Below are positions 1-45,441 of a stretch of 64,000 nucleotides of DNA, piece after piece (position 1 is the first letter of the stretch; each line of letters begins with the position of its first letter). The notes beneath the pieces were generated by a model, which was not told where the DNA came from, did not search any database, and was given only the letters and a program-made list of their open reading frames with translations. The stretch lies in the NCBI RefSeq assembly GCF_056712565.1, contig NZ_CM160072.1; one strand, written 5' to 3'. A program made the position numbers and the translations under genes.

Positions 1-278
1 TCTTTGCCTTTTAACTTGCAACTGGCTCGCTCGTGATTTGCATTTGCAAGCTCTCCATTTACAAGCCAATTGATATCAGCTCCCGTGTCAAGACAACACC
101 TAACTATGACATTGCCAGGTATTGCATCACGCTGAACCCAGCCGCTAACGCTGTGTTTAGCGATACCTAGCAGGTCAGCCAAATCCTTTTGCATCTTGAC
201 CCCATAGGCTGACATTAAGCGTTCCAATACGCCGTTCGTTGCACTAACACGCCACTGTACATCAAGCTCAGAACTCAT
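1..278 (-). CDS. cI: phage immunity repressor, 186 CI-like; N-terminal part only (gene runs off the window start)
   Basis: Reverse-strand ORF from ATG at 278 (MSSELDVQWRVSATNGVLERLMSAYGVKMQKDLADLLGIAK...CLDTGADINWLVNGE); resembles 186-type CI N-terminal domain from memory; divergent from early operon. Confidence 0.5.
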   Translation of the reverse strand, partial: MSSELDVQWRVSATNGVLERLMSAYGVKMQKDLADLLGIAKHSVSGWVQRDAIPGNVIVRCCLDTGADINWLVNGELANANHERASCKLKGK

Positions 279-399: not shown

Positions 400-771
400 A
401 TGTCAGATGCAAAATCAATCTCGACGCACGACTCGCAAAACTCACAAAATCAAACTGTGCTGCTAGATCCAACACAGTTTGATGCCATCGTTACCGCCAT
501 GCTGCCAGCTCTACAGACAATGATTCGCTCCGCTATGTCAGACACGATGACTGTGAAAGACTTCGCCGCTACTCGCGGTGTTAGCGAGCGTCTGGTCTGG
601 CAATGGCTCGATGAGGGAGTTCTTCTCAAAGCTCCGACCAAAGACTTTTCCAACAAAGAGGAAGCTGCTAAACGAAGCCGAACCCTCGTAAACGTAAAAG
701 CATGGCGCGATAAGCTGACTCAACAAGCGATTGATTGTCGCTACATCGACCAGCGCACCGCTCTTAACTGA
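400..771 (+). CDS. early regulator, Apl/Cox/Cro-like (putative)
   Basis: First gene of rightward early operon, strong RBS; possible HTH TVKDFAATRGVSERLVWQWLDEG; assignment by position. Confidence 0.35.
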   Translation: MSDAKSISTHDSQNSQNQTVLLDPTQFDAIVTAMLPALQTMIRSAMSDTMTVKDFAATRGVSERLVWQWLDEGVLLKAPTKDFSNKEEAAKRSRTLVNVKAWRDKLTQQAIDCRYIDQRTALN

Positions 772-2340: not shown

Positions 2341-4563
2341 TTGGCTGTTCAATTCGCTTATCCGTGGAACGTCCCACGGTCGGCAATCTCCAGCCCATAC
2401 CTTACTTATGAGCAACAGCATCGCCGCGACCGTATGTTCGCGGCTTTGCTGCATGCAAAAAAGGTGCTTTCTCTCCAGCCCGACTGCGTGCGGTTAGATG
2501 TTTATCGCACTGCTGCGGTGCTGGAGCAAAATCAGGGTAGTCAACGAGCCAATGCATTTTTAATCAGCTTCTGCAAAAAGGCATTGCCGCGTCTTGAACT
2601 GGTCGCAAAAAAATACGAATGCGCTGGTATCAACAGCAAGGTATCAACCGCTGTTTTTGGAAGTCATTTTGATACTCAGCAAATGCAATATCTGTCGTCA
2701 CGCATGGTTAATATGGTCGCCCGATATAACCGTCTCCCGGACATGTCGCGCGCTGATGTTGACCTGTTGGCCGCTGATATTGCTAATTTCATTCGTGGTG
2801 AACTTGCCAACATTAATGACCACGGATTCGGCGAGCTTAAAACGCTGTACACCTGGTATATTCGTGCTGGCTTTATTTCCCTCCAATTCAACGTTATCCC
2901 ACCACATTGGGAGCGGGTTGAAAAAAAATATGTCGGTGCGGATGAAATCGCACCGGCTATCGCCAAAATGTTTAACGATGGGTGGTGGCGCGGTCGTTTG
3001 CGCCGTGTAGCAGCTACGTGGCGCGAACACCTGCAAATTGCAGTCGGCAACGTCAGTAAGAAAAAAAACACTTACGCGAGTAAAAACTGCGTGACTGACT
3101 GGCGTGAACAAAAGCGCCGCACTCGTGAATTTCTCAAAGGTCTGGATCTCGAAGACGAAGACGGCAACCGTATCAGCCTAATTGAAAAATATGATGGCTC
3201 AGTTGCTAACCCTGCGATTCGCCGCTGTGAGCTCATGACCCGCATTCGTGGGTTTGAAAACATCTGTAATGAGCTCGGTTATGTCGGTGAGTTTTACACT
3301 CTAACCGCGCCGTCAAAATATCACGCCACGACTAAAGCCGGTTACCGTAACAGCAAATGGAGCGGTGCCAGCCCGGCTGACACGCAAAACTATCTAACCG
3401 GTATCTGGGCGCGTATCCGTGCCAAACTACATCGGGAAGATGTCCGTATTTTCGGTATTCGTGTCGCCGAGCCCCATCACGACGGCACTCCACACTGGCA
3501 CATGCTGATGTTCATGCTGCCGGAAGATGTTGAATATGTTCGCTCCATCGTCCGTAAATACGCATGGAAAGAAGACCGCCACGAACTGAAAAGCGATAAA
3601 TCCAAAAAAGCACGTTTCCACGCGGAGTCCATTGACCCGGAGAAAGGCAGCGCAACCGGCTATGTTGCTAAATACATTTCAAAAAATATCGACGGTTATG
3701 CTCTCGATGGTGAAACCGATGATGAAAGCGGTGAGCTGCTGAAAGAGACAGCCCCCGCCGTTTCAGCATGGGCTGCGCGCTGGCACATCCGTCAGTTTCA
3801 GTTTATTGGTGGTGCGCCGGTGACGGTTTACCGTGAGTTGCGTCGCCTCGCTGATACCGAAACCGCGCACGGTCTGAGCGTTGAGTTTGCCGCCGTCCAT
3901 GATGCCGCCGACGCTGGTGACTGGGCTGGTTATGTTAATGCTCAGGGTGGGCCGTTTGTCCGTCGCGATGATTTACAGGTGCGCACACTGTATGAACCGC
4001 GTACCGAGCTTAATCAGTACGGTGAGGAAACGGTATGTATTAAGGGGGTCTACGATTCCTCCATAGGTGCAGGAAGCCCGATTTTAACCCGGCTCACTCA
4101 GTGGAAGATTGTTCCGAAGCGTGCTGTTGATTTGCCCGTTGACCTTCAGGACGGCAAAGCCGTCCCTCGGAGTTCTGTCAATAACTGTACGGGAAGCGAA
4201 AGCGATCCACCGATACTGGATTTAACAAAACCACTGAGTCGGCGTGAAAGACGAGAATTGACCAACCGACTCAGGAAGCAAAAGCCAGCAGCACGGCGAA
4301 AATTCATCCACGGAACGGATGAGCAAAACGCAGCTATAGCTAAAACTATCGATGAGATACATCTGACAACCGGCATTAATATCAGCCGGGGCGAAGCCCT
4401 GCACCTGATGGCCGGTGGTAAAAGTTGTTTTGATGGTAAATGGCTACGCGGAACGGCCAAAGGAGAAATATTTTCCGCAGCACCATCGCATGAGGCTAAA
4501 GCTCGGAAAATCCTTAATCGTGTTGCGGCGATGGCTGAAGCATTAAAACCAATACATGAGTAA
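2341..4563 (+). CDS. A: replication initiation endonuclease (P2 gpA family, rolling-circle initiator)
   Basis: 740-aa ORF (TTG start in track; true start may be downstream ATG); motifs PHWHMLMF and YVAKYISKN (active-site Tyr region) as in gpA. Confidence 0.8.
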   Translation: MAVQFAYPWNVPRSAISSPYLTYEQQHRRDRMFAALLHAKKVLSLQPDCVRLDVYRTAAVLEQNQGSQRANAFLISFCKKALPRLELVAKKYECAGINSKVSTAVFGSHFDTQQMQYLSSRMVNMVARYNRLPDMSRADVDLLAADIANFIRGELANINDHGFGELKTLYTWYIRAGFISLQFNVIPPHWERVEKKYVGADEIAPAIAKMFNDGWWRGRLRRVAATWREHLQIAVGNVSKKKNTYASKNCVTDWREQKRRTREFLKGLDLEDEDGNRISLIEKYDGSVANPAIRRCELMTRIRGFENICNELGYVGEFYTLTAPSKYHATTKAGYRNSKWSGASPADTQNYLTGIWARIRAKLHREDVRIFGIRVAEPHHDGTPHWHMLMFMLPEDVEYVRSIVRKYAWKEDRHELKSDKSKKARFHAESIDPEKGSATGYVAKYISKNIDGYALDGETDDESGELLKETAPAVSAWAARWHIRQFQFIGGAPVTVYRELRRLADTETAHGLSVEFAAVHDAADAGDWAGYVNAQGGPFVRRDDLQVRTLYEPRTELNQYGEETVCIKGVYDSSIGAGSPILTRLTQWKIVPKRAVDLPVDLQDGKAVPRSSVNNCTGSESDPPILDLTKPLSRRERRELTNRLRKQKPAARRKFIHGTDEQNAAIAKTIDEIHLTTGINISRGEALHLMAGGKSCFDGKWLRGTAKGEIFSAAPSHEAKARKILNRVAAMAEALKPIHE

Positions 4564-4637
4564 TTCATATCCATATCATGCACATACAGCAATCGCTCTA
4601 TTCGTTTTTTTTCTTCCCATCTTTTGCCAATACGTGC

Positions 4638-4657
4638 TACTGTATAAATATACAGTA
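4638..4657. promoter_or_regulatory. LexA (SOS) box overlapping sigma70 promoter for tum/dinI-like operon
   Basis: TACTGTATAAATATACAGTA = CTGT-N8-ACAG palindrome; -35 TTGCCA (4625-4630) and -10 TATAAAT inside the box; RBS GGGAGGGAT then ATG 4677. Confidence 0.6.
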
Positions 4658-4676
4658 ACCCTATGGGAGGGATTTC

Positions 4677-4859
4677 ATGGTTGGCGAACATTTCAGCCGA
4701 ACGCAGCAAAAGTGGGCTTGTGTGCAATTTATTGCCGAGGTATCTCTGATTGCAAACTGCAAGCCATCAGACTTAAAGCTCGCGCTCACTCTCATTGCAG
4801 ACCTAGCAAACAGCGAAAATAACGAAACCGAAGATGATAATTTTTATAAGGCTGATTAG
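4677..4859 (+). CDS. Tum-like N-terminal segment (putative antirepressor part), ends at in-frame TAG
   Basis: 60-aa ORF directly downstream of LexA box; TAG 4857-4859 then ATT then ATG 4863 in the same frame. Confidence 0.4.
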   Translation: MVGEHFSRTQQKWACVQFIAEVSLIANCKPSDLKLALTLIADLANSENNETEDDNFYKAD

Positions 4860-4862
4860 ATT

Positions 4863-5093
4863 ATGAGAATCAATATCACGTTGGATAAAGAGCAAAAATT
4901 AGGGCAACAGATCATTGATGCTTTTCAGAATGAAATAACACATCGAGTACAATGCGTTTTTCCTGCAACAAAAGTTAACGTTAAGAAAGGGTCAATGACT
5001 GGTGTAGAGGCTATCGGATTCGATAAAGAGGCGGACAGAGAAACATTAGGCAGCATATTACAAGAGATTTGGGAAGACGATAGCTGGCGTTAA
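4863..5093 (+). CDS. DinI-family protein (Tum C-terminal domain-like)
   Basis: 76 aa MRINITLDKEQKLGQQIIDAFQNEITHRVQCVFP...LGSILQEIWEDDSWR matches DinI pattern (MRIEVTIAK...ISEILQETWESADDW) from memory. Confidence 0.6.
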   Translation: MRINITLDKEQKLGQQIIDAFQNEITHRVQCVFPATKVNVKKGSMTGVEAIGFDKEADRETLGSILQEIWEDDSWR

Positions 5094-5126
5094 ACATAAT
5101 AACCGTGCTGGCGCAAAAACTAGCTT

Positions 5127-5163
5127 TTTGCGTCGGCGGGGTTGAGTAACGAGCCCACGAGGC
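5127..5163. repeat. copy 1 of ~32-bp imperfect direct repeat (GGCGGGGTTGAnnAACGAGCnCnCGAGGC)
   Basis: cggcggggttgagtaacgagcccacgaggc here vs tggcgggggttgaacaacgagcaccgcgaggc at 5539-5570. Confidence 0.5.
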
Positions 5164-5292: not shown

Positions 5293-5502
5293 ATGCATCG
5301 ACTACCAGGTGAAATACCGCAGCACAAAACTAAAAGCATCAAACTGATGGCCATCGTTCATCGTTTGCAGCAGATAATGGTCAATGAGAATTTGACACCC
5401 GCAGAGCTGGTCGGGTGTGCCGAAATAGTCAGGGATAATTACGGCAAGCTGGATAGCATCAGCAGGTCGAAACAATACGCACCACCACCACGTCGACGAT
5501 AG
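5293..5502 (+). CDS. hypothetical small protein (69 aa)
   Basis: ORF with RBS GAGGGTGATAAT before ATG; flanked by the two direct repeats. Confidence 0.4.
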   Translation: MHRLPGEIPQHKTKSIKLMAIVHRLQQIMVNENLTPAELVGCAEIVRDNYGKLDSISRSKQYAPPPRRR

Positions 5503-36719: not shown

Positions 36720-36735
36720 CTGTACACAATAACAG
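36720..36735. promoter_or_regulatory. LexA box 2 upstream of recN
   Basis: CTGTACACAATAACAG (CTGT-N8-ACAG). Confidence 0.7.
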
Positions 36736-36763: not shown

Positions 36764-38425
36764 ATGTTGGCACAACTGACCATCAGCAACTTTGCTATCG
36801 TTCGTGAGCTTGAGATTGATTTTCATAGCGGCATGACCGTAATAACTGGCGAGACCGGCGCGGGTAAATCTATTGCAATAGATGCCCTCGGCCTTTGTCT
36901 CGGTGGTCGCGCTGAAGCCGACATGGTGCGTACCGGCGCTGCTCGTGCCGACCTGTGCGCCCGTTTTTCTCTGAAAGATACGCCAGCGGCCCTGCGTTGG
37001 CTGGAAGAAAACCAGCTTGAAGACGGGCATGAATGTTTGCTTCGTCGCGTAATCAGCAGCGATGGTCGCTCCCGTGGTTTCATCAACGGTACAGCTGTTC
37101 CTCTGTCACAACTGCGCGAACTGGGTCAGTTGCTGATTCAGATCCATGGTCAGCACGCTCATCAGTTACTCACCAAACCCGAGCACCAAAAATTCCTGCT
37201 TGATGGCTATGCCAATGAAACCTCTCAGCTCCAGGAAATGACCGCACGTTATCAGTTGTGGCATCAAAGCTGCCGTGACCTCGCGCATCATCAGCAGTTA
37301 AGTCAGGAACGCGCCGCCCGTGCGGAGCTGCTGCAATACCAATTAAAAGAACTTAACGAATTTAATCCGCAGCCTGGAGAGTTTGAGCAAATCGACGAAG
37401 AGTACAAACGTCTGGCGAACAGCGGTCAATTGCTGACCACCAGCCAGAATGCATTGGCATTAATGGCTGACGGTGAAGACGCAAATCTGCAAAGTCAACT
37501 TTACACGGCTAAACAACTGGTGAGCGAATTGATTGGCATGGACAGCAAACTGTCCGGCGTACTTGATATGCTGGAAGAGGCTACCATCCAGATTGCTGAA
37601 GCCAGTGATGAACTACGCCACTACTGCGATCGTCTGGATCTCGATCCCAACCGACTGTTTGAACTTGAACAGCGCATCTCAAAACAGATTTCGCTGGCAC
37701 GTAAACATCACGTCAGCCCTGAGGCATTGCCACAGTATTACCAGTCGCTACTGGAAGAACAGCAGCAACTGGACGATCAGGCCGACTCACAAGAAACGCT
37801 CGCGCTGGCGGTAACGAAACATCATCAGCAGGCACTGGAAACGGCGCGCGCGTTACACCAGCAACGCCAGCATTATGCAAATGAGTTGGCACAGCTGATC
37901 ACCGATAGTATGCATGCACTCTCTATGCCACATGGGCAGTTTACGATCGATGTTAAATTTGACGAGCATCACCTGGGCGCTGACGGCGCTGATCGTATTG
38001 AGTTTCGGGTAACCACCAACCCAGGTCAGCCAATGCAGCCTATTGCCAAAGTCGCATCCGGTGGTGAGTTGTCCCGCATCGCATTGGCAATCCAGGTCAT
38101 TACCGCGCGTAAAATGGAAACCCCGGCACTGATTTTTGATGAAGTGGATGTAGGGATTAGCGGCCCAACAGCGGCAGTTGTCGGCAAACTGCTACGTCAA
38201 CTTGGCGAATCAACTCAGGTGATGTGTGTTACCCACCTGCCACAAGTCGCGGGATGTGGTCATCAACACTATTTTGTCAGCAAAGAAACCGATGGTGCGA
38301 TGACAGAAACGCATATGCAATCCCTGGATAAAAAAGCGCGGTTACAAGAGTTGGCGCGCCTGCTTGGTGGCAGTGAAGTCACACGTAACACACTGGCGAA
38401 TGCGAAAGAACTGCTTGCGGCGTAA
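36764..38425 (+). CDS. recN: DNA repair protein RecN (SMC-like ATPase)
   Basis: 553 aa, Walker A GETGAGKS, coiled-coil middle, C-terminal signature region. Confidence 0.9.
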
Positions 38426-40561: not shown

Positions 40562-40924
40562 GGGGCTGATTCTGGATTCGACGGGATTTGCGAAACCCAA
40601 GGTGCATGCCGAGGGGCGGTTGGCCTCGTAAAAAGCCGCAAAAAATAGTCGCAAACGACGAAAACTACGCTTTAGCAGCTTAATAACCTGCTTAGAGCCC
40701 TCTCTCCCTAGCCTCCGCTCTTAGGACGGGGATCAAGAGAGGTCAAACCCAAAAGAGATCGCGTGGAAGCCCTGCCTGGGGTTGAAGCGTTAAAACTTAA
40801 TCAGGCTAGTTTGTTAGTGGCGTGTCCGTCCGCAGCTGGCAAGCGAATGTAAAGACTGACTAAGCATGTAGTACCGAGGATGTAGGAATTTCGGACGCGG
40901 GTTCAACTCCCGCCAGCTCCACCA
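40562..40924 (+). ncRNA. ssrA: tmRNA (transfer-messenger RNA)
   Basis: Starts GGGGCTGATTCTGGATTCGACGGG, contains tag ORF region (GCAAACGACGAAAACTACGCTTTAGCAGCTTAA), ends GGGTTCAACTCCCGCCAGCTCCACCA; 363 nt. Confidence 0.9.
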
Positions 40925-45241: not shown

Positions 45242-45441
45242 TGATTGTTTTTTATGCGGAGAAATACCGGGGAATAATTGGGGTAAAACACCTTTAGGCT
45301 ATTCACTTAGCCTACCACCATCAAAATCTTTCCGAATGTATCCATCTCTTTTTTCTTATGCAGCTAAAACGAAGTCTTGATACTGTTTATTTACACAGAT
45401 AAGAATAATACTGTCTACAAACGCAGTACAAAAGAAGTGTT

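Follow-up and report, generated by a model that had tools for sequence, protein, structure and literature searches.

The window analysed here is the whole stretch of 64,000 nt taken from contig NZ_CM160072.1 of the E. coli assembly GCF_056712565.1 (NCBI RefSeq), and its start lies within a P2-like prophage of the PSP3/186 type. Just downstream of the replication gene A, this prophage carries a LexA-controlled gene pair consisting of tumA, encoding a putative antirepressor, and tumB, encoding a DinI-like protein. The features that bear on the locus are as follows, in order of position.

1-278, minus strand: 5' part (first 92 codons) of cI, the PSP3-type immunity repressor gene; 97% identical to PSP3 CI residues 1-92
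400-771, plus strand: 123-aa ORF, counterpart of PSP3 gp30, at the apl/cox position beside cI
2341-4563, plus strand: replication gene A, 740 aa; replication protein GpA in ON470592 and P2 A-like in PSP3
4614-4643, plus strand: putative p95-like promoter placed by homology (-35 TTCCCA at 4614-4619, 18-nt spacer, -10 TACTGT at 4638-4643)
4638-4657: LexA box TACTGTATAAATATACAGTA, overlapping the -10 element and homologous to the annotated LexA site of 186
4665-4671, plus strand: Shine-Dalgarno motif GGGAGGG, read from the sequence, 5 nt 5' of the tumA ATG
4677-4859, plus strand: tumA, putative antirepressor of 60 aa, ATG start, TAG stop at 4857-4859; 98% identical to PSP3 TumA
4863-5093, plus strand: tumB, DinI-family protein of 76 aa, ATG 3 nt after the tumA stop and in the same frame as tumA
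5100-5144, plus strand: stem-loop after tumB (RNA fold of -26.9 kcal/mol, z -5.4), at the position of the partial terminator t95a of 186 (U32222)
5293-5502, plus strand: 69-aa ORF homologous to PSP3 gp37 (phrog_11386 at 1.5e-47), found at the same position in PSP3 and in phage 613R3
5577-6518 and 6994-7998, minus strand: two cargo ORFs of 313 and 334 aa, hypothetical in 613R3
40562-40924, plus strand: ssrA (tmRNA) with the tag ANDENYALAA, the only tRNA-like gene in the window

The LexA box differs by one mismatch from the perfect palindrome TACTGTATATATATACAGTA and is the sole match within the 64-kb window when up to three mismatches are allowed, while none of 100 shuffled sequences contained any match (0/100). 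It starts at 4638, shortly after the end of gene A at 4563, and is located 19 nt upstream of the 60-aa tumA ORF. Across 80 related viral loci retrieved from IMG/VR, the box is kept 38-42 nt 5' of the tumA ATG in all but two (78/80). The initial annotation, which was made from the letters of this DNA only, had described a near-consensus LexA box just 3' of gene A, and both the quality of the box and its placement were confirmed. The same annotation let the box overlap a sigma-70 promoter, a claim that held in part: a consensus promoter scan found no sigma-70 site at the LexA box, and the two hexamers are poor matches to the consensus, but the putative promoter aligns column for column with the -35 (TTCACA) and -10 (TACTGT) elements of the 186 promoter p95, the -10 hexamer TACTGT being the first six bases of the box. 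A TTGCCA/TATAAA pair was also considered as the promoter and was rejected because its spacer is just 13 nt long. By analogy with the work on 186, PSP3 and DuoHS, and in view of the conservation of the box, LexA would be expected to bind and repress at 4638-4657, with transcription depending on the SOS response.

As an internal control for canonical host SOS boxes, the window was also scanned with the looser motif CTGT-N8-ACAG. A LexA-box-like site (CTGTACACAATAACAG, 36720-36735) was found directly upstream of a 553-aa ORF (36764-38425) that has the size of recN, so that the window holds a candidate chromosomal SOS gene besides the prophage operon. A third match to the looser motif (CTGTTTATTTACACAG, 45383-45398) lies downstream of ssrA and could be due to chance, since 6 of 100 shuffled sequences gave three matches.

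The description of a 60-aa ORF, an in-frame TAG and then a DinI-family ORF was correct in its coordinates, and the second ORF matches the DinI family of Pfam (PF06183, E 2.1e-17, residues 15-75) as well as phrog_189 (6e-30). The first ORF is identical to PSP3 TumA in 59 of 60 residues and has no match in Pfam, NCBIfam or, by sequence, the PDB. TumA matches phrog_1993 at 1e-31, and residues 1-61 of 186 Tum match the same profile at 1e-22. When an alignment of 28 TumA members was compared to 186 Tum with hhalign, residues 16-47 were aligned to residues 14-45 with 34% identity over 32 residues (E 1.3e-4, probability 54%), while pairwise BLASTP of TumA against 186 Tum returned no alignment. The expected kinship of the upstream ORF with Tum was therefore recovered by profiles and missed by pairwise search, and we regard the relationship of TumA to the N-terminus of 186 Tum as weak but real, and as visible at profile level only. 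An AlphaFold model of moderate confidence (pLDDT 71) predicts a two-helix hairpin with an acidic tail. The tumA gene is under purifying selection, with a dN/dS of approximately 0.1 (range of roughly 0.05-0.3, mostly 0.05-0.2) at synonymous divergences reaching saturation.

The product of tumB is 70% identical to residues 71-146 of 186 Tum, which correspond exactly to Tum95.5, and 47% identical to PSP3 TumB; in the DNA alignment, the tumB ATG falls exactly on the internal GTG start of 186 Tum95.5. The homologous domain of 186 matches the DinI entry 1ghh of the PDB. Against the equivalog model for host DinI (NCBIfam NF007893), TumB scored 51.4 bits where the cut-off is 111 bits, which marks it as a phage paralogue and not a host dinI gene. 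The gene is constrained as well (dN/dS 0.05-0.16). For two viral loci (L035 and L036, tumB at 1687-1914), comparison with the window tumB gave a dN/dS of about 0.96 at low divergence, which sets them apart from all other comparisons, and these copies may be recombinant or relaxed. Translation of tumB probably occurs by termination-reinitiation coupled to tumA, given that its ATG lies 3 nt past the tumA stop and is preceded only by a weak and distant AAGG, 11 nt away.

Downstream of tumB, the hairpin at 5100-5144 was not equalled in stability by any of 200 shuffled sequences (0/200) and has no T tract on its 3' side. The gp37-like ORF that follows, which takes the place of orf97 of 186, is possibly the distal gene of the same transcript. 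Both cargo ORFs are located between the SOS operon and the portal gene Q, a variable region of P2-like phages, and PADLOC reported no defence-system match for either of the two. On the other side of gene A, the 123-aa ORF at 400-771 gave a marginal PADLOC match to mad1 (E 8.5e-4). According to a published comparison (PMC3448106), the PSP3 protein at this apl/cox position stands alone and is not related to other Cox/Apl proteins. The integrase gene and the greater part of cI are located outside the window, and the integrity of that end was checked in a near-identical record; on the ssrA side, no tRNA flanking the prophage was found within the window. Isolated 186-type phages align collinearly with the late region at approximately 90-92% identity, which is consistent with an intact, inducible prophage.

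Between 4500 and 5300, identity amounts to 99.6% with Escherichia phage vB_EcoM-613R3 and to 80% with Salmonella phage PSP3, and the arrangement of the two genes is already known from the latter. The E. coli strains D3 and MS15052 match the window at 100% from 4560 to 5140. In the PSP3 GenBank record (AY135486, 2002), tumA is labelled "similar to 5' end 186 tum; UV induction of prophage" and tumB "similar to dinI and 3' end of 186 tum". The record of phage 186 (U32222) shows p95, a LexA site and a 146-aa tum at the matching position, with internal tum starts annotated, the last of which is the GTG start of Tum95.5, said there to "modulate SOS induction". Lemire et al. (2011; PMC3121763) describe the tum gene of PSP3 and Fels-2 as divided by a stop codon, liken 186 Tum to an antirepressor fused to DinI, and assign antirepressor activity to the upstream PSP3 gene, the last of these second-hand through a personal communication of E. 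Christie. A literature search for the names tumA and tumB found no paper using either. Taken together, the locus is the PSP3 tumA/tumB pair with a different, 186-like tumB allele. The initial annotation had proposed a 186-type LexA-controlled operon combining a Tum-like function with a DinI-like protein, and this proposal was borne out by the p95, LexA site and tum at the same position of 186 and by the match of the DinI ORF to the C-terminal half of 186 Tum. An operon of this type implies that the P2-like prophage would be SOS-inducible, as had been suggested.

The two genes differ in how they are inherited. Compared to PSP3, DNA identity falls from 98.9% in tumA to 87% over the initial 45 nt of tumB and to 50% over its remainder, while the values for the same three segments compared to 186 are 42%, 80% and 71%, which places a mosaic breakpoint approximately 30-45 nt into tumB. 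In some E. coli genomes, the match to the locus breaks off at query position 343, approximately 40 nt past the tumB start and hence at the same breakpoint. The conserved junction segment ATGAGAATCAATATCACGTTGGATAAAGA is common even to 186 and would be the point at which tumB is exchanged. On the repressor side, the full-length CI of 613R3 (286 aa) is 98% identical to PSP3 CI. Since tumA and CI are both about 98% PSP3-like and TumB is divergent, tumA appears to have been inherited together with the immunity repressor, as expected of a specific antirepressor, and PSP3-type CI is its presumed target. The comparisons thus indicate that tumA travels with the PSP3-type cI and that tumB is an exchangeable module. 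The full cI gene was examined in two related loci (L004:2083-2943 and L005:1719-2579), where the N-terminal HTH-like domain of PSP3-type CI is tandemly duplicated (residues 14-76 versus 100-165, 52% identity). The CI of 186 has 192 aa, and the duplication may explain the greater length of the PSP3-type protein.

We then come to the TAG at 4857-4859. The two genes share a frame, so that reading through the stop would yield 138 aa, and the initial annotation left open whether the TAG splits a tum-like gene or separates two genes. Relatives of TumA were collected from 5.8 billion proteins and fell into 208 clusters, from E. coli, Salmonella, Klebsiella, Citrobacter, Cronobacter, Enterobacter, Kosakonia and other genera. 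Among the 120 clusters listed, nearly all have 60-61 aa, some are named TumA by UniRef, and none is a TumA-DinI fusion of about 140 aa. All homologues inspected for length or sequence have their C-terminal end in common, and the few entries of greater length are gene calls extended upstream through the LexA box.

The viral loci gave the same picture at the DNA level, the stop being found at the identical codon in 80 of 80. They comprise 45 loci with tumB 3 nt after the stop and in frame, all of them with TAG (45/45); a single locus (L058) with tumB 94 nt downstream and in another frame; and 34 without a DinI gene after tumA, where the stop is TAG (16 loci), TAA (13 loci) or TGA (5 loci). E. 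coli genomes fall into the same three classes of adjacent tumB, distant out-of-frame tumB and tumA only, and at one E. coli locus of the last class tumA is followed by unrelated genes. A wider pattern scan, which overlaps the IMG/VR loci and for the most part recovered their contigs again, found TAG, 3 nt and ATG in 53 of 53 cases among the matches listed. At the tumA-tumB junctions of the viral loci (L006-L085, at approximately 1681-1689 of each), the TAG is followed by ATT, GTT, TTT or ATC and then by ATG, so that the spacer codon, and with it the base next to the stop, is variable. On the tumA tree, the loci with an adjacent tumB form about three lineages with a dS of 0.66-0.84 from the window copy, and the constancy of the TAG at the junction, the sole feature that hints at read-through, probably reflects shared ancestry from these few lineages. 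In the DNA alignment, GAT TAG ATT ATG of the window stands opposite GAG GGC AAA GTG of 186, with the TAG opposite the GGC codon, and the simplest reading of the shared frame is as a remnant of the common ancestry of split and fused forms. Of the two options, the separation into two genes stood, through the conserved stop, the lack of fused relatives and the tumB-less loci, in preference to a damaged tum-like gene. In short, tumA is a free-standing gene, with the TAG as its normal and conserved stop.

The most attractive alternative is that the TAG is read through, in a programmed or leaky manner, to produce a 138-aa TumA-TumB fusion like full-length 186 Tum, in which case three products would be made and the in-frame layout would be functional. 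It would account for the common frame with a single sense codon between the stop and the ATG, and for the fact that the PSP3-type junctions found all read TAG, 3 nt and ATG while tumA-only loci use TAG, TAA and TGA, and phage 186 does make a fused protein. However, because there are only about three adjacent-tumB lineages at this synonymous divergence, a TAG kept three times is unremarkable, and the family lacks the marks of programmed read-through: tumB has its own ATG, exactly where 186 starts independently, the stop codon varies within the family, the nucleotide after the stop and the spacer codon are variable, and no fused homologue was found among the relatives inspected. Other layouts also work, as seen in the out-of-frame locus L058 and in DuoHS-type loci of roughly 1,000 E. 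coli genomes, where TGA is the stop and tumB follows out of frame after a 10-nt spacer. The host genome had been suggested as a place to look for an amber suppressor tRNA; none is present within the 64-kb window, where the tmRNA is the only tRNA-like gene. We consider read-through of this kind very unlikely. A milder version, in which the invariant TAG-NNN-ATG is kept because low-level read-through makes a little 138-aa fusion that tunes the induction threshold, seems to us just as improbable; if true, the locus would represent a natural link between the split and the fused forms, a gene pair with three products.

A 186-type fused tum that was hit by a nonsense mutation and is now decaying, with SOS inducibility lost or weakened, would likewise resemble a fused gene broken by one in-frame stop, and decayed copies of such prophages do exist, an internal stop having been found in gene A at one related E. 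coli locus. This explanation is scarcely credible in view of the same stop position in all 80 viral loci and in every inspected TumA homologue from many enterobacterial genera, of the purifying selection on both tumA and tumB, and of the isolated phage PSP3, whose identical layout is annotated as functional. Moreover, the locus also shows a 36-nt difference from 186 and has ATG in place of GTG, and thus differs by more than a single point lesion. Conservation of the stop, purifying selection and the tumB-less loci together rule out a recent nonsense lesion. It could also be argued that TumB drives induction, for example via RecA or LexA, with the 60-aa ORF serving as a leader or regulatory peptide, as TumB is the better conserved protein with a recognisable domain and TumA is without a relative in Pfam, NCBIfam or the PDB. 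Yet a DinI gene is absent from many prophages that retain the LexA box and tumA, TumA co-varies with the type of CI whereas TumB is freely exchanged, and the literature gives the antirepressor activity to the upstream PSP3 gene (PMC3121763, second-hand). In addition, deletion of the dinI homologue of Gifsy had no significant effect on induction (PMC3121763), while deletion of the small tum of DuoHS is by itself sufficient to abolish it (PMC12055606). A driving role of TumB is thus extremely improbable in our judgement.

The explanation we prefer, and hold to be very likely, is that the locus serves SOS induction in a PSP3/186-type (Eganvirus, P2-like) prophage, as a module of two genes that are translated separately. 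Following the work on 186, PSP3 and DuoHS, host LexA in the undamaged cell would sit on the box, which covers the -10 hexamer of the p95-like promoter, and keep the operon off. DNA damage would lead to LexA cleavage and to transcription of tumA-tumB, probably with some read-through past the hairpin into the gp37-like ORF. TumA, with its predicted helical hairpin and acidic tail, would bind the PSP3-type CI and remove it from its operators, allowing lytic growth, and tumB would probably be translated by reinitiation at the tumA stop. TumB, the equivalent of Tum95.5, probably modulates RecA filament activity and how strongly or when induction takes place. These results leave the current view of SOS-controlled antirepressors unchanged. 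Their value lies in part in annotation, as the 60-aa gene is named "hypothetical protein" in RefSeq E. coli genomes and is probably the switch that makes the prophage inducible by DNA-damaging agents, some antibiotics included. The survey also shows modular evolution, in which the antirepressor is inherited with its cognate repressor and the DinI-like partner is swapped, lost or, in 186, fused.

Among known systems, PSP3 (AY135486; Eganvirus PsP3) is the closest. It has the same order of gene A, LexA box, 60-aa tumA with TAG, 3 nt, tumB and gp37, and an identical junction, with 98% identity in TumA, 97-98% in CI and 98.9% in tumA DNA, whereas the tumB allele of the window (47% protein identity) is nearer to 186 (70%) and the host is E. 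coli. The locus has what distinguishes the split tum of PSP3 and Fels-2, namely a tumA of about 60 aa with its own stop, an adjacent tumB with its own start, and a PSP3-type CI. The likeness to Fels-2 of Salmonella LT2 is by description, through the split tum reported by Bunny, Liu and Roth (2002) as cited in PMC3121763. In phage 186 (U32222), the operon likewise follows gene A, a LexA box covers the -10 hexamer of a homologous promoter, the DinI module has a separate start at the identical position (Tum95.5), and a hairpin/terminator lies behind it. In contrast to the gene pair split at 4857-4859, the Tum of 186 is a single 146-aa fusion with a linker longer by 12 codons; the N-terminal part of Tum is about 30% identical to TumA, a homology found at profile level only and in line with the different CI proteins (192 versus 286 aa), and orf97 lies downstream where this element has the gp37-like ORF.

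DuoHS, a P2-like prophage of E. coli HS, offers a functional parallel, as either deletion of its tum or a non-cleavable LexA abolishes induction by mitomycin C (PMC12055606, the Phollow study and its preprint). We located the DuoHS-type locus from the deletion-primer sequences of that study (chimeric-primer BLAST) and found it in approximately 1,034-1,099 of 5,426 complete E. coli genomes. Similar to the window, it combines a LexA box, a small standalone Tum (62 aa) and a downstream dinI-like gene; unlike the window, its Tum belongs to the phrog_698 subfamily and is 14% identical to TumA in the alignment, and a TGA stop is followed by a 10-nt spacer that includes a GAGG ribosome-binding site for the dinI-like gene, which is out of frame. 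The N-terminus of 186 Tum also matches phrog_698, the profile of DuoHS Tum. One such locus in E. coli 504211 (L087:661-1153) shows the LexA box TACTGTAAATATAAACAGTG, the 62-aa Tum, the TGA, the 10-nt spacer and a PSP3-like dinI gene; there, a SEFIR-domain gene follows the module and gene A is truncated by IS100. More distantly, the Gifsy prophages (gfoA/gftA; PMC3121763) also pair a small LexA-repressed antirepressor with a DinI homologue and inactivate their repressor by binding and not by cleavage, but they are lambdoid phages with dinI placed first, in reversed order, and with unrelated antirepressors and repressors.
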